Shown: positions 17,698 to 42,611 of the stretch, piece by piece
Numbering within the stretch: position 1 is the stretch's first letter
Layout of the letters: every line of letters starts with the position of its first letter
Assembly (NCBI GenBank): GCA_018825385.1
Contig: JAHJEX010000056.1
Coordinates: 1-42,611 of the forward strand
DNA length: 42,611 nucleotides
Direction: 5' to 3'
DNA from: Patescibacteria group bacterium
Lineage (GTDB): Bacteria; Patescibacteriota; Patescibacteriia; UM-FILTER-42-10
The notes under the pieces: model-generated
Database searches by the model: none
What the model was told of the DNA's origin: nothing
The model's input: the letters and a program-made list of their open reading frames with translations, nothing else
Translations under genes and position numbers: made by a program

Positions 17698-17830
17698 AAA
17701 TTTGTCTGAATATATTGATCTTGTTAGAATCAGAAATTCAACAGAATTGACAACAAACTAATTTTTTCGTAAGGTAAATTACCGTATCCACTGATGGATC
17801 ATTGAAAATGAGCCTTAGGAAGGAGGCAAA

Positions 17831-28068: not shown

Positions 28069-28070
28069 TA

Positions 28071-28769
28071 ATGTCAAAAAAGCGAATTATCGTACTTAGC
28101 GCCATACTTGTTGTCGTGGCGGGGGTTGTGACATACAGATTTTGGAGCGGATCAAACGTAAAAAATAAGGCTATACCTTTTGATATTTTTTTGGAGCATG
28201 CTGTATCCGATGATCAATATATAGAAGAAGACGTTTCGGGCGACCACTTGCCGGAAACTTATATTCTTAGCAGTGGCAGATTGACTGTTACCCAAGCAGG
28301 GGAGGAATTGTGGCAAACACCATCTGAATGGTGGGTTGATCATTTTGAAATTGCTGATACAACAAGCGATGGTCAAATGGAAATAGCGCTTTCAGTCTGG
28401 AAATCAGGATCATACGGAACATCCAAACCGTTTTGGGTATCAGAGGAGGATAAAAGTGTAAAAAATCATTTCTTTGTTTTTGGGTTTAAAGATCAGAAAA
28501 TTCAACCTATTTGGCAGTCTTCAAACTTGTCTCGGCCGAACTGCGAATTTAACTTTAAAGATGTAAATGGTGATGGTATGGATGAGTTAGTAGTTATTGA
28601 AGGAGAGTATTCAAGTGATTTTATTTGTTCGGGCAAATATTTGGCGGTTTGGAGTTGGCAGGAATGGGGATTTTATAATGACTGGAGAAGCAAAGCGGGA
28701 GAATATGAGGGCGAGTTATCACAGGAGTATTTGGATCAGATAATTGAAGTGTCTAAATTTTGGGAATAG
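28071..28769 (+). CDS. membrane-anchored protein with FG-GAP/EF-like Dx[N/T]xDG motifs
   Basis: N-terminal TM; ADTTSDGQME and KDVNGDGMDEL; WQSSNL; coupled to the DUF3160 gene. Confidence 0.8.
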   Translation: MSKKRIIVLSAILVVVAGVVTYRFWSGSNVKNKAIPFDIFLEHAVSDDQYIEEDVSGDHLPETYILSSGRLTVTQAGEELWQTPSEWWVDHFEIADTTSDGQMEIALSVWKSGSYGTSKPFWVSEEDKSVKNHFFVFGFKDQKIQPIWQSSNLSRPNCEFNFKDVNGDGMDELVVIEGEYSSDFICSGKYLAVWSWQEWGFYNDWRSKAGEYEGELSQEYLDQIIEVSKFWE

Positions 28770-28828
28770 TATAATTGACAAAACGGCTCTGTTTGATAAA
28801 ATATAAGTACAACACAAAAAGATTATTT

Positions 28829-28854
28829 GAGGCGTCCTAGGCGATGCCTTTTTT
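28829..28854 (+). promoter_or_regulatory. GGCGTC leader hairpin plus U-tract (family copy 1)
   Basis: GAGGCGTC-ctaggc-GATGCCTT-TTTT, just downstream of TTGACA...TGATAAAAT (28775-28802). Confidence 0.6.
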
Positions 28855-28855
28855 A

Positions 28856-29315
28856 AATCTCTAATTCCTAATATCTAATTTCTTATCAAATCCCAATGAC
28901 CAATGGAAAAATTAATAAATATGATCTAGAGGAAAGGACTGCGAAACTTGGAGAGCAGATAATAAAATTCACAAATGACATGCCTAAAAGTCCAGTGACG
29001 CTACCCCTGATTACCCAATTAGTAAAATCAGGCACAAATGTCGGGGCAAATTATTGCGAAGCTGATGACGCTGAGTCAAGAAAAGATTTTAAGCACAAAA
29101 TTGGGATTTGCAAAAAAGAAGCTAGAGAAACAAAACATTGGCTGAGAATGATTATTATTGCTGTACCATCCTGCAAAAATGAAGCCATGAAATTGTGGCA
29201 GGAAGCAAAGGAGTTAAATCTTATTTTTAATGCAATAACTAATTCATTAAAGAGGAATATCGAGTGATTGGACATTATGCATTAGGCATTTATTAGAAAT
29301 TAGGAATTAGAGATT
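28856..29315. repeat. 24-bp inverted repeats built of heptamers flanking the four-helix-bundle gene
   Basis: 28856-28879 AATCTCTAATTCCTAATATCTAAT versus reverse complement of 29292-29315, 1 mismatch. Confidence 0.85.
28896..29267 (+). CDS. four helix bundle protein (TIGR02436 / 23S rRNA IVP family)
   Basis: YDLEERT, QLVKSGTNVGANYCEA, ESRKDFKHKIGICKKEARETKHWL and EAKELNLIF motifs. Confidence 0.93.
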   Translation: MTNGKINKYDLEERTAKLGEQIIKFTNDMPKSPVTLPLITQLVKSGTNVGANYCEADDAESRKDFKHKIGICKKEARETKHWLRMIIIAVPSCKNEAMKLWQEAKELNLIFNAITNSLKRNIE

Positions 29316-29382
29316 GAATCATTCGCAGTCTTGCATATTTATCTAGCTGTGCTAAAATAAAAACAAAGGTAGATAAGATTAT

Positions 29383-29421
29383 GGGGGCGTCCAGTTCTTG
29401 CGACGGCTCGTTTTGTTTTTT
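29383..29421 (+). promoter_or_regulatory. GGCGTC leader hairpin plus U-tract (family copy 2)
   Basis: GGGGGCGTC-cagttcttgc-GACGGCTC-GTTTTGTTTTTT after TTGCAT...TGCTAAAAT. Confidence 0.55.
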
Positions 29422-29533
29422 GGAAAGATAAACTCCGCCAAACTAAAACAAAATACCCGCGAAGATGTTTATGCAGCGACGGCGCAAATAAGTGTGGACA
29501 AATATTTAAAGGTCGAACAATAATTATTAATAA

Positions 29534-30139
29534 ATGATTATTAACAATAAGACTATGCCTAAATTAATAGTTCTTAATAATAAAAATCGAAAAATAATAC
29601 CAATCCTGCTAATATTTGAACTGGCTTTTATATTTTTTCCTCATAGTGATTCAAAGGCATATACTTATGGAGGTCAAAAATGGAGTAATGGTAAAGCAGG
29701 TTATTATCTTGATATAGCAGGATGGGATCCAACTTTGATTGTGTATCCGGCGCATACTTGGAATGATGCTGGGTCGCCGTTCAGGTTCAATTTCAAAGGG
29801 CATAATATATATCACGATAGAGATGGTAAGAATACAGTTACACGTTTTACAATGAATAATAGTAGGCCAGCTGAGACTCGTCTTAGATGGAATGGGAACT
29901 CTCTTTCTGAGGCTGATGTGGTTTTTAATATGCGTTATGGATGGGGATGTTGTGGGGAGCCAAATTTATATGATGTCAAAAACGCAATGACTCATGAGTT
30001 TGGCCACTGGTTAGTCTTACTGGATCAAAACAATCCCTGGGACTATTGGGATACGATGTACAAAACTACTTATCCGGGTGAGACAAGAAAGAGAACACTG
30101 CATAGCGATGATAGGAATGGAATTAATTACATCTATTAG
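29534..30139 (+). CDS. secreted matrixin/M10-like zinc metalloprotease
   Basis: Signal peptide; EADVVFN, YDVKNAMTHEFGHWLVLLD (HExxH), Met-turn TMY and LHSDDRNGINYIY. Confidence 0.88.
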   Translation: MIINNKTMPKLIVLNNKNRKIIPILLIFELAFIFFPHSDSKAYTYGGQKWSNGKAGYYLDIAGWDPTLIVYPAHTWNDAGSPFRFNFKGHNIYHDRDGKNTVTRFTMNNSRPAETRLRWNGNSLSEADVVFNMRYGWGCCGEPNLYDVKNAMTHEFGHWLVLLDQNNPWDYWDTMYKTTYPGETRKRTLHSDDRNGINYIY

Positions 30140-30159
30140 TTATAATTAAGTAAACGACT

Positions 30160-30771
30160 ATGAAAAAAGCAATTCCAATTATATCTACACTATTGGTGGT
30201 AGGCGCATTACTATATGTAGGAATACTAATGTTTTCTGGTTATACCAATGAAAAGGAGATTGTAAATTATTTGGAGCAAAACAAGCTAGATATTCCGGAG
30301 GGAAAAGAAGTAGTTGAGATGCGAGGTTTATTGCCAAATGATCCTACGACAAAGAACATTTCTGAAGATACCAAAATTATTGTTCATGGTAAAGTGGAAA
30401 AAATCACTGATCCATATAAAGGAGATCATGATGCTGTTTATCACGATATACTAATTAAACCGAAGGAAGTATTTAAAAACGTTGCTAAAGTTGATGAAAA
30501 TGAGTTGTTAACAGCTGAGATATATGGTGGTGAAATTGACGATGTAACCTATTGGTCTCCTGGAGCTGCAAGTTTTAAAGAAGGAGAAGAGGTAATACTA
30601 TTTCTAGGAAAAGTTGACGGATTTGATAAGTACTATGTTTCATATGGGGTTTATGGGAAATTAACTATAGAAAATGGGATAGTAAATGGAATCAATAAGG
30701 AAGATGGCCTAGTCGATATGAGTTTAGAAAAATATACTGAAAAACTAAATAGGGTACTATCGAGTAGCTAA
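30160..30771 (+). CDS. membrane-anchored partner protein of the metalloprotease
   Basis: N-terminal TM; IIVHGKV...GGEI...FKEGEEVILFL pattern. Confidence 0.8.
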   Translation: MKKAIPIISTLLVVGALLYVGILMFSGYTNEKEIVNYLEQNKLDIPEGKEVVEMRGLLPNDPTTKNISEDTKIIVHGKVEKITDPYKGDHDAVYHDILIKPKEVFKNVAKVDENELLTAEIYGGEIDDVTYWSPGAASFKEGEEVILFLGKVDGFDKYYVSYGVYGKLTIENGIVNGINKEDGLVDMSLEKYTEKLNRVLSSS

Positions 30772-30790
30772 ATCAAATAAAATTCTAGTA

Positions 30791-30838
30791 TAAAAGGGCG
30801 TCCTCGACTCTCAAGTATGAGAGAATGACGTCCTTTTA
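30791..30838 (+). promoter_or_regulatory. GGCGTC leader hairpin plus U-tract (family copy 3)
   Basis: TAAAAGGGCGTC / GACGTCCTTTTA outer stem with inner CTCTCA/TGAGAG stem. Confidence 0.65.
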
Positions 30839-30897
30839 GCCAAAATGAAAATTAAAGGTCGCATTGGGCATGAGAATAATTATTAAAGAAAAAACCA

Positions 30898-31323
30898 ATG
30901 GATCTAAATAAAGTAACAATGATCGGCAATCTAACAAAAGATCCGATCGGCAAAAAAATTGCATCCGGCCAAAGCATTACATATTTTGGCCTTGCAACCA
31001 ATTATTCGTGGAAAGATATAAAAACTAAAGAGCGCAAAGAAAAAGTCGAGTTTCATAACATAATTGCCTGGGGAAGACTGGGCGAGATTGTAACAACTTA
31101 CCTAAAAAAAGGCGACAAAGTATATATCGAAGGCCGATTGCAAAACAGAAAATGGGAAGATGATAAAGGGGAAAAGCGTTCTAAATCAGAAGTAGTGGCG
31201 CAGAATCTGATAATGCTCGGCAAGGCCAGTGCAGTTAAGGAGAAAGTTGGAAATGAAGCTCAGAAACAGAATGCAACAGAAGAAGTAAGTGCAGAAGAGG
31301 TACCAGTTATAGAAGTAGAATAA
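30898..31323 (+). CDS. ssb: single-stranded DNA-binding protein lacking the DDIPF-type tail
   Basis: LNKVTMIGNLTKDP, EFHNIIAWG and LKKGDKVYIEGRLQ motifs. Confidence 0.93.
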   Translation: MDLNKVTMIGNLTKDPIGKKIASGQSITYFGLATNYSWKDIKTKERKEKVEFHNIIAWGRLGEIVTTYLKKGDKVYIEGRLQNRKWEDDKGEKRSKSEVVAQNLIMLGKASAVKEKVGNEAQKQNATEEVSAEEVPVIEVE

Positions 31324-31325
31324 TT

Positions 31326-31675
31326 TTATCTCCTCTCCTTGGGGTTCTTCGTAGGCTGAAGGACCTCGAGACAAAGAAGATAAGACGTTGGGCGTTCGAA
31401 ACTGATTGATTTCAGTTTAGACGCTCTTTTCATTTCAAGCCGTTCTCAGATCTTTGAGAACAAAACCTGTCTAAGGAGGTGAAACCATTAAAAGCCCTTT
31501 CTTTGAATCGCAGAAAACGTTTCTCTTAAACAAGGAGTAGTGTCATGAAACGGACACTTTGGATTCTCGGAATGGCCATCTGCATGGTGGCCGTGTTCAT
31601 GGTCGCAGGTTGCGACCAGACGGATTTACCCATGTCGCCGCCAACCGACGAGGTTGTCGTCGATCAGCCGGGGGA
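31326..31675 (+). repeat. 350-bp direct repeat, copy 1 (structured leader plus lipoprotein N-terminus)
   Basis: Aligns without gaps to 34105-34454; 4 substitutions in the 219-nt non-coding part. Confidence 0.97.
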
Positions 31676-32294
31676 TGATGGTTTTCTGACTGCTGAGCAG
31701 ATCAACGCTATCGGCCAGAAACAGCATGAAGAGTTTCTGGCAAACGGTGGTGTGCTCCCGCAGCACGACGGAGAAAAGAGCTGGCAGGTTTACGTGCACG
31801 TACCGTTCTATAGCCAAAAAGACTATCACTGGAGTGGTGTTGGTCTTGGATTCAACTATGACGGTAGATCCACAATCGGAAGATATGGATGTCATCTGTG
31901 TTGTGTTTCCATGCTCTATGCTAAATGGGGGTATGGGTCAGAAACAAATCCTCCGAACCTGAACGCGTGGAAGAAGAGGTCTCGTGACCACTACGCCTTT
32001 TCAACTTCAGCGAATGGGGATCTAATCCGACCAACTCAAGCACTGGAGTATCCCTACAATTGTCGTCCTTGGTACACTATCTCCTCGAGCCAGATTTATG
32101 GCGAGTTGAGGCGAGGTCGACCAGTGATTGTGAGGACTACCTATGGGGGGAGCCATTTCATGGTCATTTTCGCCTTTGATGGCCAGCGGTTCTGGGTAAA
32201 GGACCCGCTTAAAGACGGGAATCATCAAAGTGTGCCACTCTACGGCGATGCACACCCGAAAAAACCTTTCCGAGTGTATGGTTATAGCCGATAA
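31545..32294 (+). CDS. lipoprotein with C39-like (papain-fold) peptidase domain
   Basis: Lipobox VAG-C; VPFYSQKD, IGRYGC, GRPVIV, SHFMVI and VKDP motifs. Confidence 0.85.
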   Translation: MKRTLWILGMAICMVAVFMVAGCDQTDLPMSPPTDEVVVDQPGDDGFLTAEQINAIGQKQHEEFLANGGVLPQHDGEKSWQVYVHVPFYSQKDYHWSGVGLGFNYDGRSTIGRYGCHLCCVSMLYAKWGYGSETNPPNLNAWKKRSRDHYAFSTSANGDLIRPTQALEYPYNCRPWYTISSSQIYGELRRGRPVIVRTTYGGSHFMVIFAFDGQRFWVKDPLKDGNHQSVPLYGDAHPKKPFRVYGYSR

Positions 32295-32308
32295 GTGGCT
32301 TAGCTTGA

Positions 32309-32345
32309 GGTGTGGGGGTCATAACGATCCTCACACCCATTTTTT
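32309..32345 (+). terminator. intrinsic terminator
   Basis: GGTGTGGGGGTC/GATCCTCACACC stem followed by T6. Confidence 0.8.
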
Positions 32346-32401
32346 CAAATAGCGTACCTTTGTTTATATGCTATAATTGAAACGAATTTATTAGTAATAC
32401 T

Positions 32402-33565
32402 ATGGATAAAAAAACGGGAATAATTATATTTGTGCTTCTCACTGTTTTTGTTTTTGGTATTTTCGTGGTGGTATCATTACTAGATGGAGAACGTAATTTG
32501 GAAATGGAGATTAGTAGTATTGAAAATGGAGAAGTTGATGATGAAATTGTCGAAGCTGGTAAAGATCAACATATATTTAGATCTACTGGTATTCGTGATA
32601 ATAACTGGATTCAGTATGTAAGTATTGAATATGATTTCGCAATTGATATACCACGTGAGTTCTATTGTTCTCTTTCACCAGAAGTTCTTTGGGGTGGTAA
32701 CACAGTCTATTGTCTAAGGCCAAACTCCAATTCCTCTAATAGTCAAGACGATCCACTTTTTATTGAAATTTTCTCGACAGGGTATGATTACACACAAAAA
32801 GATGCGTTTGAAAATTGGTATAAAAATGGAATAGAAAAATATTACGCACGTCAACTTGATAAAATTGCTAGCGAAGAATCTCTATTTACATTAACTCATG
32901 AAACAACTACAGGGGGCATTGCTTCATACGTATATTTTCCAACAAAAGAAACTGTGCTAACAATTGGCTCAACAGTTGTCTCAGAGGAAGAGATTCTAGA
33001 AATTGCAAATTCATTTCACTGGAAAGATGAATCACAAATAAGTAATATTAATAATAATTTAAACAGCTCTACTAATGATGAATGGATAACATTTACCGCA
33101 GATGAAATAGACCTCAGATTATCTTATCCCGGAAACTGGAAAAAATATTATGACTATTCCGAAGACTATGGTTTTACACTAGAATTAGAATCTAATATTC
33201 AAGTTTATAATGTTGATCCATTAACAAACCAGGGGGCTGAAGGTCCGTTAATAGAATTTCGTGTCAATAGTCAACCAAACTTTGAAAATTATGTACTAAG
33301 TGATTGGGTTAGTCACTCTTCTGCTGTTGAAGATGAACAAGAAAGAATTAGAAAAGACATTCAGGGGTATATGGGTTACACACAATGGATTTGGCATCAA
33401 AGTAATCCATTTGCGTTTTCTTCCATAAATTATTATGTTGATGTAAACGATGAAATTTGGGAATTTAGAGCAAGTATAAATGATGATAATCCTGAGTCAG
33501 AACAGTTTATAAAATCAAAAAAGATTATAGAGCAAATCTTCGAGAGTATTGAGTTTACAGATTAA
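32402..33565 (+). CDS. membrane-anchored acidic protein with two PsbP-like domains
   Basis: N-terminal TM; WIQY..YDFAIDIP and WITF..LRLSYPGNW; ends EQIFESIEF; TGCTATAAT promoter upstream. Confidence 0.75.
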   Translation: MDKKTGIIIFVLLTVFVFGIFVVVSLLDGERNLEMEISSIENGEVDDEIVEAGKDQHIFRSTGIRDNNWIQYVSIEYDFAIDIPREFYCSLSPEVLWGGNTVYCLRPNSNSSNSQDDPLFIEIFSTGYDYTQKDAFENWYKNGIEKYYARQLDKIASEESLFTLTHETTTGGIASYVYFPTKETVLTIGSTVVSEEEILEIANSFHWKDESQISNINNNLNSSTNDEWITFTADEIDLRLSYPGNWKKYYDYSEDYGFTLELESNIQVYNVDPLTNQGAEGPLIEFRVNSQPNFENYVLSDWVSHSSAVEDEQERIRKDIQGYMGYTQWIWHQSNPFAFSSINYYVDVNDEIWEFRASINDDNPESEQFIKSKKIIEQIFESIEFTD

Positions 33566-33575
33566 TTCAAAAAAT

Positions 33576-34073
33576 ATGAAGCACAAGCTTATCACTATCA
33601 TAACTATCATTGCCAGCTTGTCTATGAGTTTATACGGCGTTGGTGCTAATGCCGCTGTTTCAGATTACGAAGGAAGTATTTTGCTGGATGTGGAGCGTAA
33701 TGGAGAAGCATATTATGTATATCAGGGAGAAAAATACTTCCTTGGTAGACCATGGCAAGCTTTTGAGATAATGCGAAAATTATCGTTAGGAATATCAGAA
33801 GATAATTTCCAGACAGGATTCCAACAAGTAAATGATATCTGGCAGATCTATAGAATAGTAAATATATACTTATTTCCCTACATTCAGGGTAGGATAGTCA
33901 TACGTCCCGAAGCCAATGGAGAAGCTTATTATGTGACCCCCAATCTTGCCGGAGGAAGTGGATATTCTGCTGAGTATCTTGGAAGGCCTTATGATGCATT
34001 TCAGATAATGACAAAGTTTGGACAAGGCACGCAGTCGGCACAAATAGATTCGATTCCAAATGGTACTCTGTAA
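33576..34073 (+). CDS. secreted protein with two G-x-I-L/V...NGEAYYV...LGRP..AF.IM repeats
   Basis: Signal peptide ending ANA; tandem repeat visible in the translation. Confidence 0.85.
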   Translation: MKHKLITIITIIASLSMSLYGVGANAAVSDYEGSILLDVERNGEAYYVYQGEKYFLGRPWQAFEIMRKLSLGISEDNFQTGFQQVNDIWQIYRIVNIYLFPYIQGRIVIRPEANGEAYYVTPNLAGGSGYSAEYLGRPYDAFQIMTKFGQGTQSAQIDSIPNGTL

Positions 34074-34104
34074 ATAATATCTGTTTAGACTAAGCAAAAT
34101 ACAA

Positions 34105-34454
34105 TTATCTCCTCTCCTTGGGGTTCTTCGCAAGATGAAGGACCTCGAGACAAAGAAGATAAGACGTTGGGCGTTCGAAACTGATTGATTTCAGTTTAGA
34201 CGCTCTTTTCATTTCAAGCCGTTCTCAGATCTTTGAGAACAAAACCTGTCTAAGGAGGTAAAACCATTAAAAGCCCTTTCTTTGAATCGCAGAAAACGTT
34301 TCTCTTAAACAAGGAGTAGTGTCATGAAACGGACACTCTGGATTCTCGGATTGGCCATCTGTACGGTGGCCATGTTCTGGGTCACGGGCTGTGACCAGAC
34401 GGATTCACCCATGTCGCCGCCAACCGACGAGGTTGTCGTCGATCAGCCGGGGGA
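34105..34454 (+). repeat. 350-bp direct repeat, copy 2
   Basis: Matches 31326-31675 at an offset of 2779 bp. Confidence 0.97.
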
Positions 34455-34935
34455 GGAGGGGGCACAGGTAGAGAAATCTGCCTTGTCGAATTACTGGCGT
34501 TCCGCTGTCTACCGCGAGATCTGCTACGCGCTTTCCCGCGTACGCTACAATGCCGGTGATTGGGGTGCTTCTACCCGAATCTACCACGGATGGTTTGCCG
34601 GTGACTGGGACTACAGTAACCGAAGCAACATCATCGGGTGGGGTGGCGAATGTAAACAGTTCGCACGTGAAATCGTCTGGCGGGCGACTGGTCAGAACTG
34701 TCTTCCGACTAGTTACTACTACGCTAATGGTGACATTGCTTGGTGCCGTCCTGGTGATGTGATCCAGCGCAGGCCTCCTAATCAGCACACGGCCATCGTT
34801 TTCAAAGTGTTGGCTCGTGATTCACATGGTCGTGCGACGAAGATCGATGTCATCGATAGCAACTACATCCGGTATCACACGATCGGCAGGCACGTCCTGA
34901 GTGGCAGTACGCTTTCCAAGTACAAGGTTTGGTAG
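34324..34935 (+). CDS. lipoprotein with CHAP/NlpC-P60-like amidase domain
   Basis: Lipobox VTG-C; GGECKQFA, PGDVIQ, HTAIV and IDVIDSNY motifs. Confidence 0.75.
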   Translation: MKRTLWILGLAICTVAMFWVTGCDQTDSPMSPPTDEVVVDQPGEEGAQVEKSALSNYWRSAVYREICYALSRVRYNAGDWGASTRIYHGWFAGDWDYSNRSNIIGWGGECKQFAREIVWRATGQNCLPTSYYYANGDIAWCRPGDVIQRRPPNQHTAIVFKVLARDSHGRATKIDVIDSNYIRYHTIGRHVLSGSTLSKYKVW

Positions 34936-34940
34936 TCCTC

Positions 34941-34989
34941 TGTGGTCGATACGGCTCATTACGAGCTAGTATCGGCCACATACTTTTTT
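34941..34989 (+). terminator. intrinsic terminator
   Basis: TGTGGTCGATAC/GTATCGGCCACA stem followed by T6. Confidence 0.8.
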
Positions 34990-35031
34990 CTCAGTAAATA
35001 AAGTGATATAATTAAATAACATTGGTTAATT

Positions 35032-35640
35032 ATGAAAGGAAATAATATGAAAAAATCTCTCTATACAATAGGTGTGTTACTAGTAGTAGGTATTTTTGCC
35101 TACTATGCAGCGACGACACTAAGTAAGAACGATCAGGATAATGATAATGCAAATACCAATAGCGTAGTGAATAGCGAATGGAAGACTTATAGTCATGATT
35201 CTGGTTTATCTTTTGATTATCCTGAGAATGCTACAGTGTGGCCGGATGGGTATAAGGAAGAATCTGGTTCTTTGTCTATCATAAAGAATAGCGATTACAT
35301 TGATGATTATATGGAAGAATATGTGTTATTCAAGAATGGTATCCCAGGGATTACGTTATCAGAATATATTTCTCAAAATAGTGCTCCAGAATATAAAGAT
35401 AGTAAGAAAGAAATTGACTTGAATGGAATGACCGCATATCAGTATGTAGTAAAAAATCCTACTGATATCTATCTTGGAACATTCTTTGAAGATAATAATA
35501 GCAATTACTATGATTTCTATATTGAACAAGGTGCTCCTAGTCTTGAAGGGAAAATAACTGGAGAATTGTCACAAGAGTATCTTAATCAGATTGAATCTAC
35601 ATATACTCAGATTTTGAATAGCATTAAGTTTGTTAACTAG
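35032..35640 (+). CDS. membrane-anchored PsbP-like protein
   Basis: N-terminal TM; WKTY..GLSFDYP; ends QILNSIKF; TGATATAAT promoter upstream. Confidence 0.78.
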   Translation: MKGNNMKKSLYTIGVLLVVGIFAYYAATTLSKNDQDNDNANTNSVVNSEWKTYSHDSGLSFDYPENATVWPDGYKEESGSLSIIKNSDYIDDYMEEYVLFKNGIPGITLSEYISQNSAPEYKDSKKEIDLNGMTAYQYVVKNPTDIYLGTFFEDNNSNYYDFYIEQGAPSLEGKITGELSQEYLNQIESTYTQILNSIKFVN

Positions 35641-35651
35641 CTTTTAGAAAT

Positions 35652-36749
35652 ATGAATAAAATATCAAAAATATTACTCACAATTCTATTAATTGTTGTGC
35701 TTGGTTTTGGTGCATACTACACAATAAATGAAATCTCTACTGAAGATACAAACACAGCTACAATAATAAATACAACTGCAGAAGAGGAAGAAATAACTGC
35801 TGCAGAAGAAGATTTTGAATACAAAACAATAACTTTTAGAGATGAAGTTCACGCTGTTTCAATGCAAATTCTTGAACAATGGAAAGATTATCCTCTAAAT
35901 ATTAATGACAGAGAAAAAGCTAGTTTGTTAAGCTTTGATGTCGAAGAACTAAATCCAACATCACTAGAAGATGGTTATCCATATTCCGCAGATTTGAGTT
36001 GGTATAATTCAAATGGAATTGAATTAAATGCATGGGTAGAAGAACATTATGATAATGAGCTTACTACACATTCAGTATGTAATGGAGTGTACAATACATC
36101 TACTAATGATGGCTATAATGGTGTCGAAGTTGTGTGTAAGGAAGAATATGAAGCGTCTTATACAAACACAGGCCATTCAGCGACTAGAGCGTATTACTTT
36201 TTTAGTGTTGGTGACTATATTTATAAGTTTATGGTTTATTTAGGAACTTCTATGTATACAAATATGCAACCTATTATTGAAGAAATTAAAGATAGTATAG
36301 TTTTTGGTGAACCATTTAATCTTGATGAATGGAAAACATATGCAAGTGAAGATAATGGTTTTAGTGTGAAGTATCCACCAGTTTGGTATGTATCAGAAAA
36401 CTGGGAACAGCTTGGAGGATTTGTTGGTTTTGATGAAATAAAGGATCTTTTTGAGGGTCATAAGGTAACAATAAGTACACATTCTGATGAGGGATATACA
36501 AGCTCATTGGCAGGGCAAACAAGATTAGAAAATACTCAATTATCTTATCCTCATATTGGGGGTGTCCCCGCAGTTAGAATTAGTGGAATTTTTCCTGAAC
36601 CTACATATGGGTTTTCAGATTATACTGATTCCGTTTTTGTAATGAGTGACGGGTTAGGAATAGAAATGGCATATCAGGAAACGGGTTTTGATCTTGAATC
36701 TCGTGAAACATTTAGCCAAATGCTCAGAACATTTGAATTTATAAAATAA
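35652..36749 (+). CDS. membrane-anchored protein with two PsbP-like domains
   Basis: N-terminal TM; WKTY..GFSVKYPPVW; EEIKDSIVF; ends QMLRTFEF. Confidence 0.78.
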   Translation: MNKISKILLTILLIVVLGFGAYYTINEISTEDTNTATIINTTAEEEEITAAEEDFEYKTITFRDEVHAVSMQILEQWKDYPLNINDREKASLLSFDVEELNPTSLEDGYPYSADLSWYNSNGIELNAWVEEHYDNELTTHSVCNGVYNTSTNDGYNGVEVVCKEEYEASYTNTGHSATRAYYFFSVGDYIYKFMVYLGTSMYTNMQPIIEEIKDSIVFGEPFNLDEWKTYASEDNGFSVKYPPVWYVSENWEQLGGFVGFDEIKDLFEGHKVTISTHSDEGYTSSLAGQTRLENTQLSYPHIGGVPAVRISGIFPEPTYGFSDYTDSVFVMSDGLGIEMAYQETGFDLESRETFSQMLRTFEFIK

Positions 36750-36754
36750 TCTAG

Positions 36755-37537
36755 ATGCCCCCAAAAAAACAACAACCCCAAAATTCAAAAATAATCAATC
36801 TGCTTTTTCTGATTGCTGTAATTGTAGTTGGTGCTATAGGAGCATATTATTTGATCACAGATTCTGATTCTGATACAGAAATAAATACAAAAAAAAGCGG
36901 TTCAACTAAAACTACCATTACTAATCAACCCGCAAGTTCTTCTAATGAAAATATAAATAAAAATACTTTTGAAGGAGATGAACTAAATGTTGGAAATGGA
37001 TTTACAATCACTGTACCAACGGGATGGAATTTGGCCGGTTTTTTGGAAGACGCTATAAATATTGTGAAATTTGGGTCGCCGGCACAGATCTACACTCTTA
37101 CTCCTGAAGGCGGTCAAATTGATATGTTTGGGCCGGTTATTTCTGTAGACACATTTACAATTGATGAAAATCTGAACGCAACAGAAGTGGTAAACCTGAT
37201 TCATGATCAGGGGATTGCTAGCGATCTAGAAAGAAAAAAAGATAACTGTTTCTTTGAGATGGAGAAATCAAAATTTGGGCAGTTTGATACTTTCTCTTTT
37301 ATTCGAGACAATACTGATCCAGAAAAATGCAATGAAGAAGCAACTGAAACTGCTAAATCCCAGACAGTAGTATTGAAGGAAAAAGGGAATTCTGATACAG
37401 CTATTCTCACACTTGTGGCGATTGACGATCCTCAACTTGTAGCATTACTCCCAGATTTTCAACAAATCTTGGGAAGCATGAAGTATAAAAAAACAGTTTC
37501 TGATACTGTAGAAGAAGCAGTAGAAGAGACTGAATAA
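36755..37537 (+). CDS. membrane-anchored PsbP-like protein
   Basis: N-terminal TM; GFTITVPTGW; FQQILGSMKY. Confidence 0.75.
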   Translation: MPPKKQQPQNSKIINLLFLIAVIVVGAIGAYYLITDSDSDTEINTKKSGSTKTTITNQPASSSNENINKNTFEGDELNVGNGFTITVPTGWNLAGFLEDAINIVKFGSPAQIYTLTPEGGQIDMFGPVISVDTFTIDENLNATEVVNLIHDQGIASDLERKKDNCFFEMEKSKFGQFDTFSFIRDNTDPEKCNEEATETAKSQTVVLKEKGNSDTAILTLVAIDDPQLVALLPDFQQILGSMKYKKTVSDTVEEAVEETE

Positions 37538-37650
37538 AACACGAAAAAAACGCGGAAAGCAAAACCTTCCAATTGATAAATTCGAGAATTGATGAAACAA
37601 TAAACACATATAATGCGCTTCTGCATAATTGTTTAAATGATTAAGCTGAT

Positions 37651-38307
37651 ATGAGAATATATACATTAAAAGAAAAACTGTTAGGAATAATATTATCAAA
37701 TACTAGGAATTCTGATGTTGCCCATGACTCTGAACACACTTTTCGCGTGTTAAAAACAGCAGAAAAAATAGCTCGTGCAGAAAAAGCAGATCTTGAGGTT
37801 GTAATACCTGCCGCATTGTTTCATGATTTTATCGTTTCGGCAAAAAATAATCCCAAATCGAGATCTGACACCAAATTAAGCGCAGATTTTGCTAAGCAGG
37901 TTTTGAGTGAACTCAAAGGATATCCTGCACATAAAATTGACCTTGTTTGTCGGGCTATTTTAGATTGTTCATTTACAAATGGAACTAAGCCAAATTTTTT
38001 GGAGAGCAAGGTGGTTAAAGATGCAGATAGTTTAGATACTGTAGGATCGTTAGGTGTAATGCGTATTTTTGCTACTGCTGGTCAACTTCAGATACCATTT
38101 TATAGTTTGTAGGATCCATTTTGCAGTAAACGCAAGCCAAATCCAAAATTATACGCAATTGATTTCATATTTACACGTTCCCTAAAAGTTTGTGATAACG
38201 TGTATACTAATACTGCTCGTAAGATGGCTCAAAGTAGAAGTAAGTATATTAGAAGTTTCTTAAAGCAATTACAATTAGAACTTAACCAAATATCAAGATT
38301 GAGGTAA
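37651..38307 (+). pseudogene. HD-domain phosphohydrolase (YedJ-like) interrupted by in-frame TAG at 38110-38112
   Basis: AHDSEH, AALFHD and VVKDADSLD motifs; the frame stays open after TAG (DPFCSKRKP..TARKMA..FLKQL) to TAA 38305-38307, 2 nt before the next ATG. Confidence 0.8.
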
Positions 38308-38309
38308 TA

Positions 38310-39368
38310 ATGAAAAGAAAATTTTCTGCTGGTGGAATAATATCAAAAATACACGAGGGTAATACTTTTATACTTTGTTTGACGACAAAAAATAATCTTT
38401 TGACATTACCAAAGGGGCATTTAGAGAAAGGTGAAACACCAGAGCAAGCGGCGATTCGGGAAATAAAGGAAGAAATTGGATTGAGGTCAGCTAGCATTAC
38501 AAAGAAATTGGGAGAAATCGTACGAGTGGGAACAGAACAAGACGGGAGTCAATCTATCAAGAAAATTACGTACTTTATTATGGACGGCTCTGAATATACC
38601 TACGATCATGAAGAAAATTACGTGTGGGTTGGTTTTGATATGGCACTGAAATTAATGGACCACCCTGAAGAAAAAAACTTGTTGTTTGATAATGAAGAAT
38701 CTATTGCAAAAAACACTTCCGCATATTTTAATAGTTATAAATCATTTATTAATTATTACTATTATCCTAAAAAGACAATTTTGAGCGAAAATTACGAATT
38801 ATTAAATAAAGTGAGAAAATTTGTTAATAGTAATACAGTGGCAGTAGTTATTGGAATACCAACAAAACAAGAGAAGGAATTATTTTCTAAGACACACAAA
38901 ACTTTGTATGTTTCTCCAGGAATTGATAAAAAAGAAAGATTTAAGAAGAATAAAAAACCTATTGCTAATCTATTGTCACCTCATACTGTTAAAAACTTAG
39001 TTGATGCTGATTTGCCTGAAGATATTTCTATTTGCTATGCATGTCAATCAATAAACCTATCAAATACTAAAACCTTTTTTTTAATCAACCAGTTAGTGAA
39101 AAAAATGCGACCTGAGGCTAAATTTTTTATAGAGGGCATAGGAGAAGATGATCTAATGATACATGGGGGGGTAAAAATTGGTCCGAACCTCATTAATCTT
39201 GGAGGGTATATTATAAGAATGTGGAATAAAAGCAATACTATAAACTATTTTGTAAGAAAACTTGGTCTAAATATTATTTCTTACGACAGTATAAAAGTTG
39301 ATAAAAAGGGTGAAAGATGTGAAGTTCATCAAATTATTTTAGAAAGACCAGATAAAACTATTTTTTAA
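38310..39368 (+). CDS. Nudix hydrolase fused to a degenerate SAM-methyltransferase-like domain
   Basis: Complete Nudix box GHLEKGETPEQAAIREIKEEIGL; C-terminal LVKKMRPEAKFFIE resembles class I MTase (tentative). Confidence 0.8.
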   Translation: MKRKFSAGGIISKIHEGNTFILCLTTKNNLLTLPKGHLEKGETPEQAAIREIKEEIGLRSASITKKLGEIVRVGTEQDGSQSIKKITYFIMDGSEYTYDHEENYVWVGFDMALKLMDHPEEKNLLFDNEESIAKNTSAYFNSYKSFINYYYYPKKTILSENYELLNKVRKFVNSNTVAVVIGIPTKQEKELFSKTHKTLYVSPGIDKKERFKKNKKPIANLLSPHTVKNLVDADLPEDISICYACQSINLSNTKTFFLINQLVKKMRPEAKFFIEGIGEDDLMIHGGVKIGPNLINLGGYIIRMWNKSNTINYFVRKLGLNIISYDSIKVDKKGERCEVHQIILERPDKTIF

Positions 39369-39369
39369 G

Positions 39370-39912
39370 GTGAAAAAGAAAAATACAATTGTTTTAGAGG
39401 GATTGCCTGCAAGTGGAAAAACAACATTGGCAAACTATTTGCGTGATCATTTTGGTGTATTTAAAGTGAACGAGTCTACTGGTATTGCTTCTAAAAACTC
39501 TGGTAACCAAACTAAAATATTCGAAGAAACGATTGATAAATATATTGAAGCAAGAAATTGTTCCCAGTTATCTATAATTGATCGAGGTTATCCATCTATA
39601 CTGGCATGGGATTATTGCCGAGAGAAAGAAGGAGGGGAACATAATTACTATAAAAAAAAGTATTGGATACGCGAGGCAATAAAAAAAGGCTATTTGTTTG
39701 AGCCTCAATTATATATATATTTATATGCAGATTGTAATTTAAGCTTTATTCGCAGGCCTAGACAAGAGACAAAAATTGATGTTTGGAGTAGTAAAATAGG
39801 TGTTGCAAATTGTAAATTATTTTATGAAAAATTTTTTCTAACAAAGAGATCAAGAAAAATACTTTATTTGTTAATGCAGAAGATAAAACTAAAAAAATTG
39901 CGGATATTTTAA
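39370..39912 (+). CDS. thymidylate/deoxynucleoside kinase-like P-loop protein (probable frameshift near the C-terminus)
   Basis: IVLEGLPASGKTT, IIDRGYPS and PQLYIYL motifs. Confidence 0.8.
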   Translation: MKKKNTIVLEGLPASGKTTLANYLRDHFGVFKVNESTGIASKNSGNQTKIFEETIDKYIEARNCSQLSIIDRGYPSILAWDYCREKEGGEHNYYKKKYWIREAIKKGYLFEPQLYIYLYADCNLSFIRRPRQETKIDVWSSKIGVANCKLFYEKFFLTKRSRKILYLLMQKIKLKKLRIF

Positions 39913-39932
39913 TGAATTCAATCCAAAAGTGA

Positions 39933-41243
39933 ATGTTAGATTATAAAATAATATACTTGACTGATGATGGAATAACGTCACTAAGGTGTGGTGTCGGAGC
40001 AATTACTAGTAATTTTATTGAATCCTTTCCAGCTATCAATGATTATTTCAAAAAAAGAAAAATAAATATATCTTTATCAGTAATTTCTTTTAATACTTCT
40101 AAAAAAAATATTGGGTATAGAATTGACTTGAAGAATCGGGCAAAAAGTATTTGTCGTTCAACTGGAGGAAAAGTTTATCTGATTTATAGAAGGAAAATTA
40201 GAAAAATCGGTTATTTTGATTTCTCATATTGGAAAAAGTATAACGAAGAGATATCAAAAATTATAAATAGAATTGCTGATGATGGTAATAAAAAAGTAAT
40301 AGTACTTGCAAATGACACAATATTTGCTAATGTTCACTGCCCAAAAAATGTGATCTTCGTGTGGATACCTCACAGTTTGGCGATGGTTCATTCGCAAACG
40401 TATGTAAATAATGCTAAGAGATTAAACTGGGAAAAAGAAGCGATTTCTCGTATAAACAGCATGCCAGATCATTTTATTGGGTATATTTCCCCCTTTGTTA
40501 AAAGTATACTTACCAAAAAGCTGAAAGTGAAGAAAGATAAAGCAATACCATTTCAAAATGGTTTTTGTCTAAAATATATTAAAAAACAGAGTAGTTATTC
40601 CAAAAAACAAATCGATAAGATGCTTATTAAAAGAGGTATAGACACAAAACGGCCGATAATATTGACATTTGCTCGAGCTGATGAGTATAAAGGCCTAGAG
40701 CATTCTTTAAGGGTAATGACACATTTTACGGATACGGGTTATTATTATGGAGTAATTATCGCATCAAGGTTTAGTAATGAATTGATTGTTGATCGTGTCC
40801 AAGAAAATTTGAGAAAAATATTATCAGGTCACAAAAATATTAGTGCATTTTTTGAATATGAATTTGAATTACCTAAATACTTATTGCGCTATGCAAAAAC
40901 TCAGGTATTACTTAATTTACCAAATAAAGACTTCTGCCCGTTGATTCCATTTGAAGCAGAATTAATTGGGAATAAGAACTTGCAAGTAATAAACAGTAAT
41001 ATAGCTTGTTTTAATAAATTGGTAATAAATAATCATAATGGTTTTTTAGTTGATCCGTATTACCCTAAAGCTTTTATACAGGTTAGAAAAGCAATAAGCA
41101 TCAGAGCAGAAAAAAAGAAAACAGTAATTAAAAATGCAAAAAAATTTGCACAACAGAATTTCGATATAATAACTAATTATATAAAAGGATTTGAATGCTT
41201 GTTTGAAAAAGAGAAGCTGGGCAAAGGTTTAACAAGAACCTGA
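39933..41243 (+). CDS. GT-B fold (family 4-like) glycosyltransferase
   Basis: WIPHS, LTFARADEYKG, DFCPLIPFEA and NGFLVDP motifs. Confidence 0.82.
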   Translation: MLDYKIIYLTDDGITSLRCGVGAITSNFIESFPAINDYFKKRKINISLSVISFNTSKKNIGYRIDLKNRAKSICRSTGGKVYLIYRRKIRKIGYFDFSYWKKYNEEISKIINRIADDGNKKVIVLANDTIFANVHCPKNVIFVWIPHSLAMVHSQTYVNNAKRLNWEKEAISRINSMPDHFIGYISPFVKSILTKKLKVKKDKAIPFQNGFCLKYIKKQSSYSKKQIDKMLIKRGIDTKRPIILTFARADEYKGLEHSLRVMTHFTDTGYYYGVIIASRFSNELIVDRVQENLRKILSGHKNISAFFEYEFELPKYLLRYAKTQVLLNLPNKDFCPLIPFEAELIGNKNLQVINSNIACFNKLVINNHNGFLVDPYYPKAFIQVRKAISIRAEKKKTVIKNAKKFAQQNFDIITNYIKGFECLFEKEKLGKGLTRT

Positions 41244-41290
41244 TAATTCTATCAGGTTGTTTCTTTAGAATTCTAGCCAGGGAGGATGAA

Positions 41291-41890
41291 GTGAAGAAGC
41301 AAATAGTCTTTGTCGGTGGCATCCATGGTGCTGGCAAAAGCACTAATTGCCACGCTCTGTCCGTCCAGCACGGTTGGCGTGTAGTGAAGCAGCGCAGGCA
41401 ACTGATTAGTGTGGGAGCGGAACATGGTATATTGTGGCCTGAAGTGGCAAGTAGACATGACGAACTGATTCCGCATGTTGCTGATCGGTTGTTGGATATG
41501 TTAAGACAGTCTGCAGAGGCAGTCTTACTGGTTGATTGCCACTATGCAATTCCGACTTCTGCTGCGCTGAGAACACGCCACTGCACCGGCTGTTATATGC
41601 CGAATCTTGACTGGAATCTGGTAGAACGTGTTAAACAAGAGCACTGGTGCAGGTTTGTCCTTCTAAAAGTTGACCCTGCAATAGCTTTAGCACGCATCAT
41701 GGCTAGACCAGAAGCTACCCATTACGTGAATACGCTGAGACATTTCGTAGAAGAAGCAGTTGCAGAAAACGAAGTATTTCAGCGTTTACTTGCTCATTTT
41801 TCGGTACAATTCAGCGACTGTATTATCCTGGAAGCTATAAATTCCAGGCAAACAGTTTCTATGCTGGATAGGTTTATTTGCTCTACTTAA
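41291..41890 (+). CDS. P-loop nucleotide kinase (archaeal adenylate-kinase-like)
   Basis: IVFVGGIHGAGKST and LLVDCHY motifs; GGAGG SD with GTG start. Confidence 0.78.
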   Translation: MKKQIVFVGGIHGAGKSTNCHALSVQHGWRVVKQRRQLISVGAEHGILWPEVASRHDELIPHVADRLLDMLRQSAEAVLLVDCHYAIPTSAALRTRHCTGCYMPNLDWNLVERVKQEHWCRFVLLKVDPAIALARIMARPEATHYVNTLRHFVEEAVAENEVFQRLLAHFSVQFSDCIILEAINSRQTVSMLDRFICST

Positions 41891-41915
41891 GCATCCACAG
41901 CGTGGATGCTTTTTT
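41889..41915 (+). terminator. intrinsic terminator
   Basis: AAGCATCCAC/GTGGATGCTT stem followed by a T run. Confidence 0.85.
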
Positions 41916-42171
41916 AAAGAAGACTTTTTTTGAGCCTTGATTTATTTAGAATGCAAAACCTTCCCCTACAATGGGGGAAGGCTTTTGTGAACAAACAGTA
42001 TAGATCTTGTCTATACCGTCAAGCATTATAATATCAAATTGCGCTTTAGCGGTCAATAGAGTTGTACACACTTACTCCCCAAGAGTAATAAATTTATTCT
42101 CAAATTAGCCATAATATTGACTGAATTCCCCCTATGATTTAGGATGAAGATGCAATCAAAATTACAGTGTT

Positions 42172-42225
42172 GGCGTTCTCTTAAATTCCCGGTAATCGGG
42201 ATAAGGAGTAACGCTTATTTTATTT
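42172..42225 (+). promoter_or_regulatory. GGCGTT leader hairpin plus U-tract (family copy 6)
   Basis: GGCGTTCTCTTA...TAAGGAGTAACGCT-TATTTTATTT, downstream of TTGACT-17-TAGGAT. Confidence 0.55.
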
Positions 42226-42242: not shown

Positions 42243-42611
42243 ATGACATTGTACCGCAATTCACAAAAACGAATATATTTGGATGAAGCAATTTATTTTG
42301 TGACATTCAATACAAGGGGAGGCCTTCCGAATTTTAAAGAAGAGATTTTCTGCCAACTTTTTGTGGACAATTTGAAAATTTGTAAACAGTTGAAACAGTT
42401 TGAATTGTACGCATTTAATCTTTTATACAACCACGCGCATTTATTGTTGAAACCGGGACGGAAATATAATGTGTCGAAAATCATACAAAATTTGAAAATG
42501 AATACATCGCGCAATATAAACAAAGTTATGGGTTATGAAACCCATGAAGGCGCGAATACGTATTCGCGCCTTCATGTTGGGAAATATCGTAAATTATTCA
42601 TAAAAAAATAC
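42243..42611 (+). mobile_element. HUH (Y1) transposase, REP-associated tyrosine transposase/IS200-like; runs off the window edge
   Basis: MTLYRNSQKRIY..IYFVTFNT..FELYAF..NHAHLLL..VSKIIQNLK; not in the ORF track because it has no stop in the window. Confidence 0.85.

Follow-up and report, generated by a model that had tools for sequence, protein, structure and literature searches.

The window, the whole 42,611-nt stretch of DNA analysed here, carries six sites on its forward strand (c1 to c6), at each of which a hairpin runs into a U-rich tract, and all six coincide with the positions proposed in the first-pass annotation. It belongs to the 1.27-Mb genome G000, which was compared with five relatives of the same order (G001-G005). 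The host bacteria are ultra-small groundwater organisms. At c1, a promoter-like site, TTGACA-16-TAAAAT with a TG before the -10 (28775..28802, 11/12 matches), starts 6 nt past the stop codon that ends the preceding gene (28071-28769). It is followed by a module of the AAGATTATTTGAGGCGTCC motif, the hairpin (stem 28829-28850) and a T6 run (28819..28855; 35.2 bits with covariance model R1). The next gene (28896..29267) encodes a 23S_rRNA_IVP four-helix-bundle protein (PF05635, 1.8e-13) and is flanked by 27-nt inverted repeats at 28853-28879 and 29292-29318 (92.6% over 27 nt). The module-plus-IVP unit also occurs in G005, and in DNA contigs of run X1 the IVP gene region (28883-29289) is replaced by other sequence. 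At c2, a promoter-like site read from the sequence, TTGCAT-16-TAAAAT (29331..29358), has orthologues in G001 and G003 of the form TTGACT-16-TGATAAAAT. The module behind it (29375..29421; R1 37.6 bits) consists of the AAGATTATGGGGGCGTCC motif, the hairpin (stem 29384-29409) and a U-rich run at 29410-29421. It is nearly invariant across G001-G003, has an orthologue in G004 and heads the ssb leader in G001 and G002. Further downstream, the conserved leader blocks GCGACGGCGCA, GTGTG, TAAAGGTCG and AATAATTATTAA (29476..29533) are kept in four genomes, and the distance from the U-run to the next start codon is about 115-170 nt.

Site c3 is an intercistronic hairpin, AAAAGGGCGTCC..GGACGTCCTTTT, located before ssb (30791..30838; R1 22 bits, E 0.038), with an orthologue preceding ssb in G003. 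Behind it comes an AT-rich block with TAAAGGTCGCATTGGGCA.. (30853..30897). This block is the portion of the ancestral ssb leader nearest to ssb and stands directly 5' of ssb in G001 and G002; c2 and c3 together represent an ssb leader that was split and partly duplicated. The hairpins of c4 (31390-31426) and c5 (34169-34205) lie in the two copies, 94% identical, of a 300-nt direct repeat. Copy A (31313..31612) comprises an approximately 220-nt leader after ssb plus lipoprotein signal-peptide codons, and copy B (34092..34391) heads a different lipoprotein gene (34324-34935). Since both hairpins are contained in one direct repeat, a single element was copied together with a gene head, and the six sites amount to five independent copies rather than the six counted earlier. 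The c4 leader and its position after ssb are kept in G001-G003, where the base stem GGGCG/CGCTC is retained and the upper stem differs. For the intercistronic c3, c4 and c5, no promoter of their own was found, the best match upstream of c3 being merely 7/12. At c6, a promoter-like site, TTGACT-17-TAGGAT (42117..42145, 9/12), precedes a module of the TTGGCGTTCTC.. hairpin (42172-42215) and a U-rich run (42172..42224; R1 32.6 bits), located 19 nt upstream of a Y1 (IS200-like) transposase-like gene (42243-42611). A similar promoter-like site lies before the c6-orthologous element in G002, and paralogous Y1 genes on contig C41 of G000 and in G002 and G003 are preceded by the same kind of element. 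Promoter-like sites thus precede three copies, c1, c2 and c6.

The family is marked by an A-rich lead-in and then ATTGGGCG[G/T][C/T]CTC, which forms the 5' arm of the hairpin, followed by the U-rich run. The loop and the G.U-rich 3' arm are variable, and the conserved sequence reaches beyond the stem to an unpaired ATT before and CTC after the 5' arm. The AAGAT lead-in given in the first-pass annotation is absent from c3 and lies 26 nt upstream in c6. Its other shared sequences were recovered as described, namely CAAAG..AGATAAGA in c2, c4 and c5, ATTTCAAG after c4, c5 and c6, and TAAAGGTCG..AATAATTATTAA after c2 and c3. Compared with 200 shuffles, the folds of c1 (-11.0 kcal/mol, z -2.9), c3 (-23.0, z -5.7), c4 (-17.9, z -4.7) and c6 (-20.0, z -4.4) were scored alongside that of c2 (-10.9, z -1.3), which is not exceptional. 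Ten U occur within the 12 nt after the c2 stem and four to six in the first nine nt at c3, c4 and c6, and c3 and the c4 orthologues have short U-runs of 3-4 U. The sites therefore have the build of an intrinsic terminator, with a U-rich run immediately behind a GC-rich stem-loop; of these sites, a strict terminator scan lists c1 alone.

Across the six genomes of the order, a search for the exact 13-mer ATTGGGCGKYCTC returned 24 matches versus 1 for the control; in 118 genomes elsewhere in the class, the figures were 8 and 6, which is background. Within G000, 15 of 334 crude intergenic terminator-like hairpins carry the motif. Model R1 identified nine sites at E<0.05 in this genome, six of them inside the window and two of them new, at C17:12326-12380 and C17:13780-13820. 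At E<=1, it found 5, 7, 9, 10 and 11 sites in G001-G005; the model hits range from 5 to 13 per genome, their loops differ, and the counts are not independent because the collections contain no more than six related genomes. Orthologous positions are kept in five genomes for c2, four for c4, two for c3 and two for c1 plus IVP. The sites form a real family that was found in this order alone, represented by six Kerfeldbacteria-like genomes. When 11 members were aligned, 90.9% of the cells of the 8-bp base stem were paired, versus 35-66% with the partner slid. The compensatory changes ascribed to it are few, with both-sided changes in two of the eight pairs and the others changing from G-C to G-U or invariant. 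Covariation is weak evidence here, since the aligned set was also chosen by motif, and the consensus is partly circular, its members having been gathered with a motif-rewarding model. The element matches no existing Rfam family: there were no matches in the whole window at the gathering score or in 28600-34400 at E<=1, and tRNAs alone were returned at eight loci of modules or of the RNA X described below (E<=0.1).

The genetic context analysis indicated a close link to promoters, a property that is not encoded in R1. A promoter match of at least 9/12 was present within 75 nt upstream of 26 of 35 members from the six genomes, versus 9.25% of 2000 random windows, and a match of at least 10/12 in 16 of 35 versus 1.65%. 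The gap from -10 to stem is mostly 22-29 nt, and a motif element occurs at 5 of the 335 strong promoter-like sites of G000. In c1, c6, C41u, C17a, C17b, C81 and the UPF0102 members, the start codon lies 26-71 nt from the stem start, leaving no room for a second promoter, so that these members show a promoter-terminator-gene layout, which the promoter-less c3, c4 and c5 do not. Plain terminators at gene 3' ends, as which the first-pass annotation had asked whether most copies could be read, make up a minority, namely the two model hits after rpoC that are true 3' terminators. At least four members are not simply 3'-end terminators, as they either have no co-directional upstream gene to terminate (C1, which sits in a divergent intergenic region, C11 and C17b) or come after a separate terminator of that gene (c2 in G001 and G003). 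For others (c1, c2 in G000, C17a and C81), the gene immediately upstream is co-directional and has no terminator besides the element, whose main role could be to terminate it. Contigs from the RNA library of run X8 cross c1 (27500-29248) and c3 plus c4 (30151-31480); these contigs cannot show RNA ends or levels, may derive from DNA in the library, and are at most a hint of read-through.

The explanation that we favour, and to which we assign about an even chance, is that the promoter-proximal and intercistronic terminator hairpins are attenuators whose shared motif implies one trans-acting factor. In a typical member, a strong sigma-70-type promoter is followed by an A-rich transcript start of 13-20 nt, the motif in the 5' arm of the hairpin, a U-rich run and, 15-180 nt later, the start codon. 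RNA polymerase would meet the terminator about 45-70 nt into the transcript, and the frequency of read-through would set the expression of the gene behind the element. The 5' arm and its flanks are fixed across non-orthologous members and the partner arm is free, which suggests that one trans-acting factor reads the 5' arm and unpaired flanks. Such a factor may compete with hairpin formation or stabilise the hairpin, and would tie the element-bearing genes into a small regulon. Within the window, c1, c2 and c6 sit next to a promoter, and c3-c5 are promoter-less intercistronic elements around ssb, with c5 as the duplicate of c4. The regulon signal proposed in the first-pass annotation is partly supported: a motif shared beyond a generic terminator, promoter proximity and the small gene set speak for it, and the promoter-less c3-c5 and the sparse compensatory changes do not.

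Neither an alternative antiterminator fold nor a leader peptide turned up, the only small open reading frame, in c2 of G000, not being kept in relatives; the conserved motif is a candidate binding site. The co-occurring NusG paralogue that had been thought worth seeking did not appear, as the 90%-complete G000 holds a single PF02357 match. A CAT_RBD antiterminator protein was likewise not detected in G000 (no PF03123 match; control genomes matched), Hfq was not found either, and an ANTAR-domain search of G000 gave no match, with the control search likewise matching nowhere. The earlier idea of a competence regulon draws its whole support from gene content, where ssb and a ComM-type Mg-chelatase ATPase, joined in relatives by a UPF0102 nuclease-like gene, stand among lipoprotein, IVP and Y1 transposase-like genes.

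Leader attenuators, termed 'ribo-regulators' in Term-seq work, are promoter-proximal intrinsic terminators in 5' leaders. The family resembles them in that a promoter is followed by a short untranslated leader, in which a GC hairpin and its U-run come ahead of the start codon, with the gene reached by read-through alone. It differs in that neither an aptamer nor a leader peptide nor a competing antiterminator fold was detected, in that 13 nt of 5' arm and flank are common to unrelated genes in one lineage, and in that the leader before the hairpin measures only about 15-20 nt. RAT elements, which are bound by antiterminator proteins of the BglG/LicT/SacY type, and ANTAR-regulated leaders are comparable in that one conserved RNA sequence, overlapping the 5' half of the terminator, is present in several leaders and defines a regulon. 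Unlike RAT, the family leaders allow no alternative RAT-like hairpin to be drawn because their upstream part is A-rich, and the CAT_RBD protein was not found in G000.

A possible but rather unlikely alternative to attenuation is constitutive punctuation, in which the elements would be ordinary terminators, insulators or 5' mRNA stabilisers behind promoters embedded in a compact genome, with motif and spacing inherited from one duplicated promoter-leader cassette and read by no factor. The copying of c4 to c5 proves that leader cassettes duplicate, the splitting and partial duplication of the ssb leader into c2 and c3 points the same way, and the sites after rpoC, the members that are the sole terminator-like element behind a co-directional gene (c1, c2 in G000, C17a and C81) and the RNA-library contigs bridging c1, c3 and c4 all fit. 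Descent alone does not predict the asymmetry by which 13 nt of 5' arm and flanks are fixed across two genera in non-orthologous copies while loops and 3' arms have fully diverged; nor do the 319 of 334 terminator-like hairpins that do without the motif, or the members C1, C11 and C17b, agree with punctuation. It is most improbable that each promoter-to-U-run unit is a small RNA gene in its own right, about 50-70 nt long, with the gene behind it expressed otherwise. The order of strong promoter, short A-rich single-stranded 5' segment and terminator hairpin would suit such genes, as would the long distance from U-run to start codon at c2, but in most members the start codon comes 3-40 nt past the U-run without a second promoter, so that the downstream gene must share the promoter of the module, and c3, c4 and c5 are promoter-less. 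A very unlikely reading places the function in DNA, as REP-like or IS200/IS605-end-like palindromes for Y1 (HUH) proteins or as an operator for a DNA-binding regulator. Like the family, REP elements with RAYT and the subterminal hairpins of IS200/IS605 are short imperfect intergenic palindromes, and c6, C41u, the orthologues of both and the n1 members lie directly before Y1_Tnp genes, a Y1 HUH transposase beside a palindrome being found only for c6 and C41u with orthologues. The C41 gene is also flanked by inverted GGCGTCCTC, upstream in a hairpin and downstream inside X, and reading as double-stranded DNA would explain the motif on either strand. Against this, the copies are few rather than many, are not near-identical, vary in their loops and hold stable orthologous positions across 2-5 species instead of being insertion-polymorphic; their strand and promoter distance are fixed, the motif is not palindromic, and wherever the stem has a G.U pair, the opposite DNA strand would have a C.A mismatch.

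A candidate trans partner is X, a separate predicted RNA of about 320 nt that is conserved and present in a single copy (G000, C41 about 3858-4180, + strand). We consider it unlikely, though conceivable, that base pairing between the apical loop of X and the nascent transcript, at the leader motif and terminator 5' arm, blocks the hairpin, so that transcription, or translation, would proceed. Every one of the six genomes of the order retains X together with its promoter-like site (TTGACA-16-TAAAAT, 11/12, with TG), the only one in 700 nt; the site comes after a terminator that belongs to the gene before it, and the opposite strand is shielded by a minus-strand terminator. The + strand is favoured by its G.U pairs, by the consensus fold (-40.2 vs -35.3 kcal/mol) and by the hairpin alone (-20.7 with 28 pairs vs -16.9 with 18 pairs). 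The loop, GGACGCCCAAUAAUC, is invariant, is predicted to be exposed in all six genomes (P(unpaired) 0.70-0.74) and is, in silico, the exact complement of the leader family consensus. Unbroken complementarity extends over 24 nt in the UPF0102 leader of G004, 22 nt in G005 and 13+8 nt in c2, and the best non-self partners in G000 are C1 (-29.0), c1 (-28.6) and c2 (-28.0 kcal/mol), against a background of 29,488 intergenic 40-nt windows with mean -9.2 and sd 3.4 kcal/mol. The failure to find Hfq, CAT_RBD or a NusG paralogue also speaks for an RNA partner. Conversely, the complementarity could stem from an old inverted duplication, as the other strand of X is colinear with the c2 leader, and the loop, being invariant in just six genomes, offers no covariation. 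The GGGCGGCC subclass (C17a, C17b, C11, n2 and n3) is centrally mismatched with the loop, its duplexes (-21 to -26) falling within the background tail. Furthermore, the X terminator is degenerate in G000, and binding to a nascent transcript before more than about 30 nt are synthesised would probably be kinetically demanding.

Antisense-RNA-mediated transcription attenuation is established for pT181 and pIP501, and X would likewise present an exposed small-RNA loop that pairs with a nascent leader near its terminator and decides termination. This kind of attenuation has also been described for RnaG-icsA of Shigella (PMC2879508) and pCF10 prgQ/Anti-Q (PMC3181467). The RNAs of these four systems lie opposite a single target and promote termination. 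X, predicted to prevent hairpin formation at several targets, is encoded elsewhere, on contig C41 with its predicted targets on C66, C1 and C17. It seems doubtful, but worth stating, that X is a trans master antisense regulator that would co-activate the ssb, ComM-type ATPase, UPF0102 nuclease-like, surface lipoprotein, IVP and Y1 genes. If so, X would represent plasmid antisense attenuation in a chromosomal form, with several targets and with antitermination as the outcome, in a lineage for which a search found no Hfq, and its regulon may link to DNA uptake or cell-surface remodelling in episymbiotic-type bacteria.

The hairpin copies of contig C66, here c1 to c6, were examined in their source genome (G000; 1.27 Mb, 38% GC, 90 contigs, 90% complete) and in five other species-level genomes of the same order and family, three of the same genus (G001-G003) and two of a sister genus (G004 and G005). 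Since only these five share its order and family, counts over the six genomes are counts over kin. A hairpin followed by a U-rich run was found at each of the six sites proposed between 28829 and 42172, and every side motif listed in the first-pass annotation was recovered from the window. Compared with shuffled sequences, c3, c4 and c6 folded far better (z -4.4 to -5.7) and c1 moderately so (z -2.9), whereas c2 was unexceptional (z -1.3). The copies c4 and c5 both lie within one 300-nt direct repeat (31313-31612 and 34092-34391, 94% identical), which carries a leader of ~220 nt and the signal-peptide codons of a pair of lipoprotein genes that otherwise differ. The two copies are therefore a single element counted twice, which leaves five independent copies of the six claimed. 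The duplicated cassette has a GC content above its surroundings and heads two genes that are otherwise unrelated; a third lipoprotein gene with a similar signal peptide occurs at G000:C1:23272.

Comparison with the relatives clarified how the remaining copies are connected. The c2-type unit leads directly into ssb in G001 and G002, whereas in G000 and G003 other genes lie between this unit and ssb, which is directly preceded by a c3-type hairpin and a proximal block. The downstream block common to c2 and c3 reflects their origin, each being a piece of the ancestral ssb leader. Furthermore, c1 is a paralogue of c2 with the same extended -10, spacing, AAGATTAT and GGCGTCC arm, and with a shortened loop. 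Directly after the ssb stop (window 31326-31375; orthologs L004-L006), a pyrimidine-rich TCTCCTCTCC is followed by a 10-bp hairpin of variable loop (GGGGTTCTTC/GAAGGACCYC) and by a mid-leader AGGAGG ~100 nt before the real start, all three being kept in four genomes. The gene behind c1, encoding a four-helix protein of the 23S_rRNA_IVP type, is flanked by 27-nt inverted repeats (28853-29318 with the repeats). The cassette between these repeats varies in the population, since minor contigs of the DNA run X1 link 28883 to 29267-29289 with different letters between; a module-plus-IVP unit is also present in G005. A diversity-generating retroelement around this IVP/Avd-like gene was considered and rejected, as a Pfam scan of 47 ORFs of the window gave no reverse transcriptase.

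To define the family, 11 copies were aligned: the five independent window copies, C1:23113, the hairpin before the Y1 transposase-like gene on C41 (C41u), three c2 orthologs and one G004 copy. The 8-bp base stem was paired in 90.9% of cells, versus 35-66% with the partner slid; the compensatory changes reported earlier amounted to both-side changes in just two of the eight pairs. A covariance model built on this alignment yielded nine sites in G000 at E<0.05, including two new ones, both on C17 (C17a and C17b), and 5-11 sites per relative at E<=1, while regular-expression scans added C11:3441 and C81:56700. The resulting set of 35 members combined eight G000 model matches, the C11, C81 and C41u members and 24 matches in relatives (E<=0.024, with loci); the c5 duplicate, the copies within the candidate RNA X described below, weaker matches and two matches without loci were left out. 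Anchored on GGCG, the consensus reads A-rich ... aTTGGGCGTCCTC, and conservation also takes in the unpaired ATT ahead of the stem as well as the CTC that follows the 5' arm. Members differ in their loops and 3' arms, which often pair via G.U.

The element is a real, lineage-specific family. The exact 13-mer ATTGGGCGKYCTC gave 24 matches in the six genomes versus one control match; in the class, a further 118 genomes showed background levels (8 versus 6 control matches). The longer pattern AAGATTAY-N1-6-GGCGTCC occurred in all six family genomes and in 7 of 395 others, versus 5 control matches, and its matches outside the family fell in unrelated contexts. An exact 17-mer, AAGATTATTGGGCGTCC, had a match in G052 that, like seven other class-level pattern matches, lay in an unrelated and mostly coding context; a scan of genome contigs with this 17-mer returned 26 matches, mostly chance occurrences in large genomes, the Patescibacteria among them being Candidatus Kerfeldbacteria or Patescibacteria group bacterium records. 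A metagenome scan with the Y1 protein for further relatives returned just the source organism and one G003-like contig, and Rfam gave no match to the element at gathering score or at E<=1. Copy number, variability and stability set the element apart from the REP and IS200-end families, although several members adjoin Y1 genes. No report of such an element in Patescibacteria appeared in the portions of the literature retrieved by our search; a paper on TIGR-Tas (PMC12045711) that came up there appears unrelated.

Because the covariance model starts ~15 nt before the stem, promoters provide an independent check. A promoter match of >=9/12 within 75 nt upstream was found for 26 of the 35 members, versus 9.25% of 2000 random windows, and one of >=10/12 for 16 of the 35, versus 1.65%. 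Most members have 22-29 nt between the -10 and GGCG, so the hairpin starts ~15-22 nt into the transcript. For c1, c6, C41u, C17a, C17b, C81 and the UPF0102 members, the start codon is so near that the module promoter must serve the gene. The C1 member lies in a divergent intergenic region, and the gene upstream of c2 in G001 and G003 has its own terminator ahead of the promoter. The copies c3, c4 and c5 are intercistronic and without promoter (best 6-7 of 12), and two model matches after rpoC are ordinary 3' terminators; c1, c2 (in G000), C17a and C81 each also follow a co-directional gene that has no other terminator-like element behind it. Few sites in G000 carry the element: 5 of the 335 strong promoter-like sites, and 15 of the 334 intergenic hairpins crudely classed as terminator-like. 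An unbiased search for 7-mers enriched below those 335 sites recovered ATTGGGC (4 observed versus 0.52 expected) in a list dominated by start-codon words. The top-enriched 7-mers include ATG, which suggests that leaders in this genome are typically very short and that those bearing a module are exceptions.

A GC hairpin with a U-rich run immediately behind it, placed 45-70 nt past a strong promoter and ahead of the sole start codon, has the anatomy of a promoter-proximal terminator. Judged from sequence, attenuation is the most economical reading of this layout, and the element would then work as a leader attenuator does. The 5' arm and its flanks are fixed while the partner arm is free, an asymmetry that is, on sequence grounds, the putative signature of something reading the 5' arm. 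RAT and ANTAR regulons likewise carry conserved sequence over the 5' half of a terminator; unlike them, the element has no alternative hairpin, and no competing antiterminator fold was found in the leaders examined. In the 90%-complete G000, neither a CAT_RBD protein, a NusG paralogue nor Hfq was found, and the ANTAR search had no match there, its control search also matching nowhere. A 16-codon sORF overlapping c2 in G000 is missing from the orthologs, leaving no conserved leader peptide. In X8, a metatranscriptomic library with the source organism (contigs only), contigs cover 27500-29248 across c1 and 30151-31480 across c3, ssb and c4, with 29248-30151 uncovered among the contigs listed. 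This bridging is compatible with read-through, contigs revealing neither RNA ends nor levels. The first-pass annotation was largely right in what it observed, with five independent copies. Its reading as a regulon signal is supported in part: the motif is conserved, mostly promoter-proximal and tied to a small gene set, with a function that we infer.

The genes behind the modules encode the IVP protein, a weakly M10-like peptidase, ssb, a Peptidase_C39_2-like lipoprotein and two other lipoproteins, Y1_Tnp transposase-like proteins, a ComM/YifB-type Mg-chelatase ATPase (C81), a PsbP_2-like membrane-anchored protein with a 445-aa paralogue-like neighbour (C17), a 45-residue Cys-rich peptide (C11) and UPF0102 (G004 and G005). 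This mixture of DNA-handling and surface genes is compatible with the earlier guess of competence or host contact, but is no proof of it. On C11 (G000:C11:3441-3750; L111), a module of the GGGCGGCC subclass is followed by a 170-nt leader and then the 45-codon Cys-rich reading frame. The window's Y1 transposase-like gene contains, in frame, a perfect GC-rich palindrome of 34 nt (42543-42576); at the homologous position its C41 paralogue carries another perfect palindrome of different sequence (G000:C41:3483-3512), and related palindromes occur on C35 and C17.

Apart from leader copies, the 17-mer occurs once per family genome, in a conserved noncoding stretch of ~320 nt termed X (G000:C41 ~3858-4180 or, more widely, ~3824-4180, + strand; L026:1232-1590). 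X is a single-copy candidate noncoding RNA in G000; each of the six genomes of the order has it once, in most cases beside a Y1 transposase-like gene, and it had no match in Rfam. Its extended -10 promoter (TTGACA-16-TAAAAT, 11/12, with TG) is the sole promoter-like site in 700 nt of the C41 + strand, is kept in all six genomes and follows the terminator of the Y1 gene next to it. The + strand is favoured by G.U pairs, and a strong minus-strand terminator shields the opposite strand. Two other interpretations were rejected: a minus-strand terminator inside X is present in G000 alone and so is not a conserved feature, and reading frames differ among genomes, which argues against a protein gene. 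X also holds four GCCGUCG repeats and an invariant CCUCAUGAGG. The c2 leader contains GCGACGGC twice, in the 3' arm of the hairpin (29400-29409) and in a conserved block 76 nt downstream (29476-29486), and its complement occurs four times in X, as two pairs with 18-nt spacing.

On the + strand of X, the leader motif appears as its complement, GGACGCCCAAUAAUC, at the tip of a long hairpin. Between the two genera this hairpin has undergone compensatory changes, and its loop has a P(unpaired) of 0.70-0.74. The complementarity spans at least the 5' arm in all members, reaching 24 nt in the UPF0102 leader of G004, 22 nt in that of G005 and 13+8 nt in c2. Pairing with the X loop would hold the 5' arm, leaving the terminator unable to form; in the UPF0102 leader, the 3' arm that would be freed includes GGAGG. 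A duplex scan of 29,488 intergenic G000 windows (mean -9.2, sd 3.4 kcal/mol) ranked C1, c1 and c2 first among non-self partners of the loop, at -28 to -29 kcal/mol. An ORF-poor stretch of ~770 nt (window 17196-17970) also holds one of the better predicted partners (17591-17640, -27.4 kcal/mol). Nevertheless, X read on its other strand is colinear with the c2 leader, and the complementarity may be just an old inverted duplication. The X loop is invariant across genomes, no further relatives having been found; the GGGCGGCC subclass has a central mismatch to it, with duplex energies within the background tail; and the X terminator is poor in G000. On balance, we consider it rather unlikely that X reads the leader motif in trans. 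Under such a role the element would resemble antisense-RNA attenuation as described in PMC2879508 and PMC3181467, except that X would work in trans, would have many targets and would act with the opposite sign.

Patescibacteria (CPR) have few transcription factors, and to our knowledge almost nothing is known about their gene regulation. A shared RNA-level signal that closely follows the promoters in a defined set of genes would be among the first CPR regulons recognisable from sequence alone, and for this one the X RNA offers a concrete candidate regulator. If X is the factor, it would demonstrate that intrinsic terminators in several operons can be controlled by a trans-acting RNA; if it is not, the conserved 5'-arm motif would still point to some RNA-binding factor.
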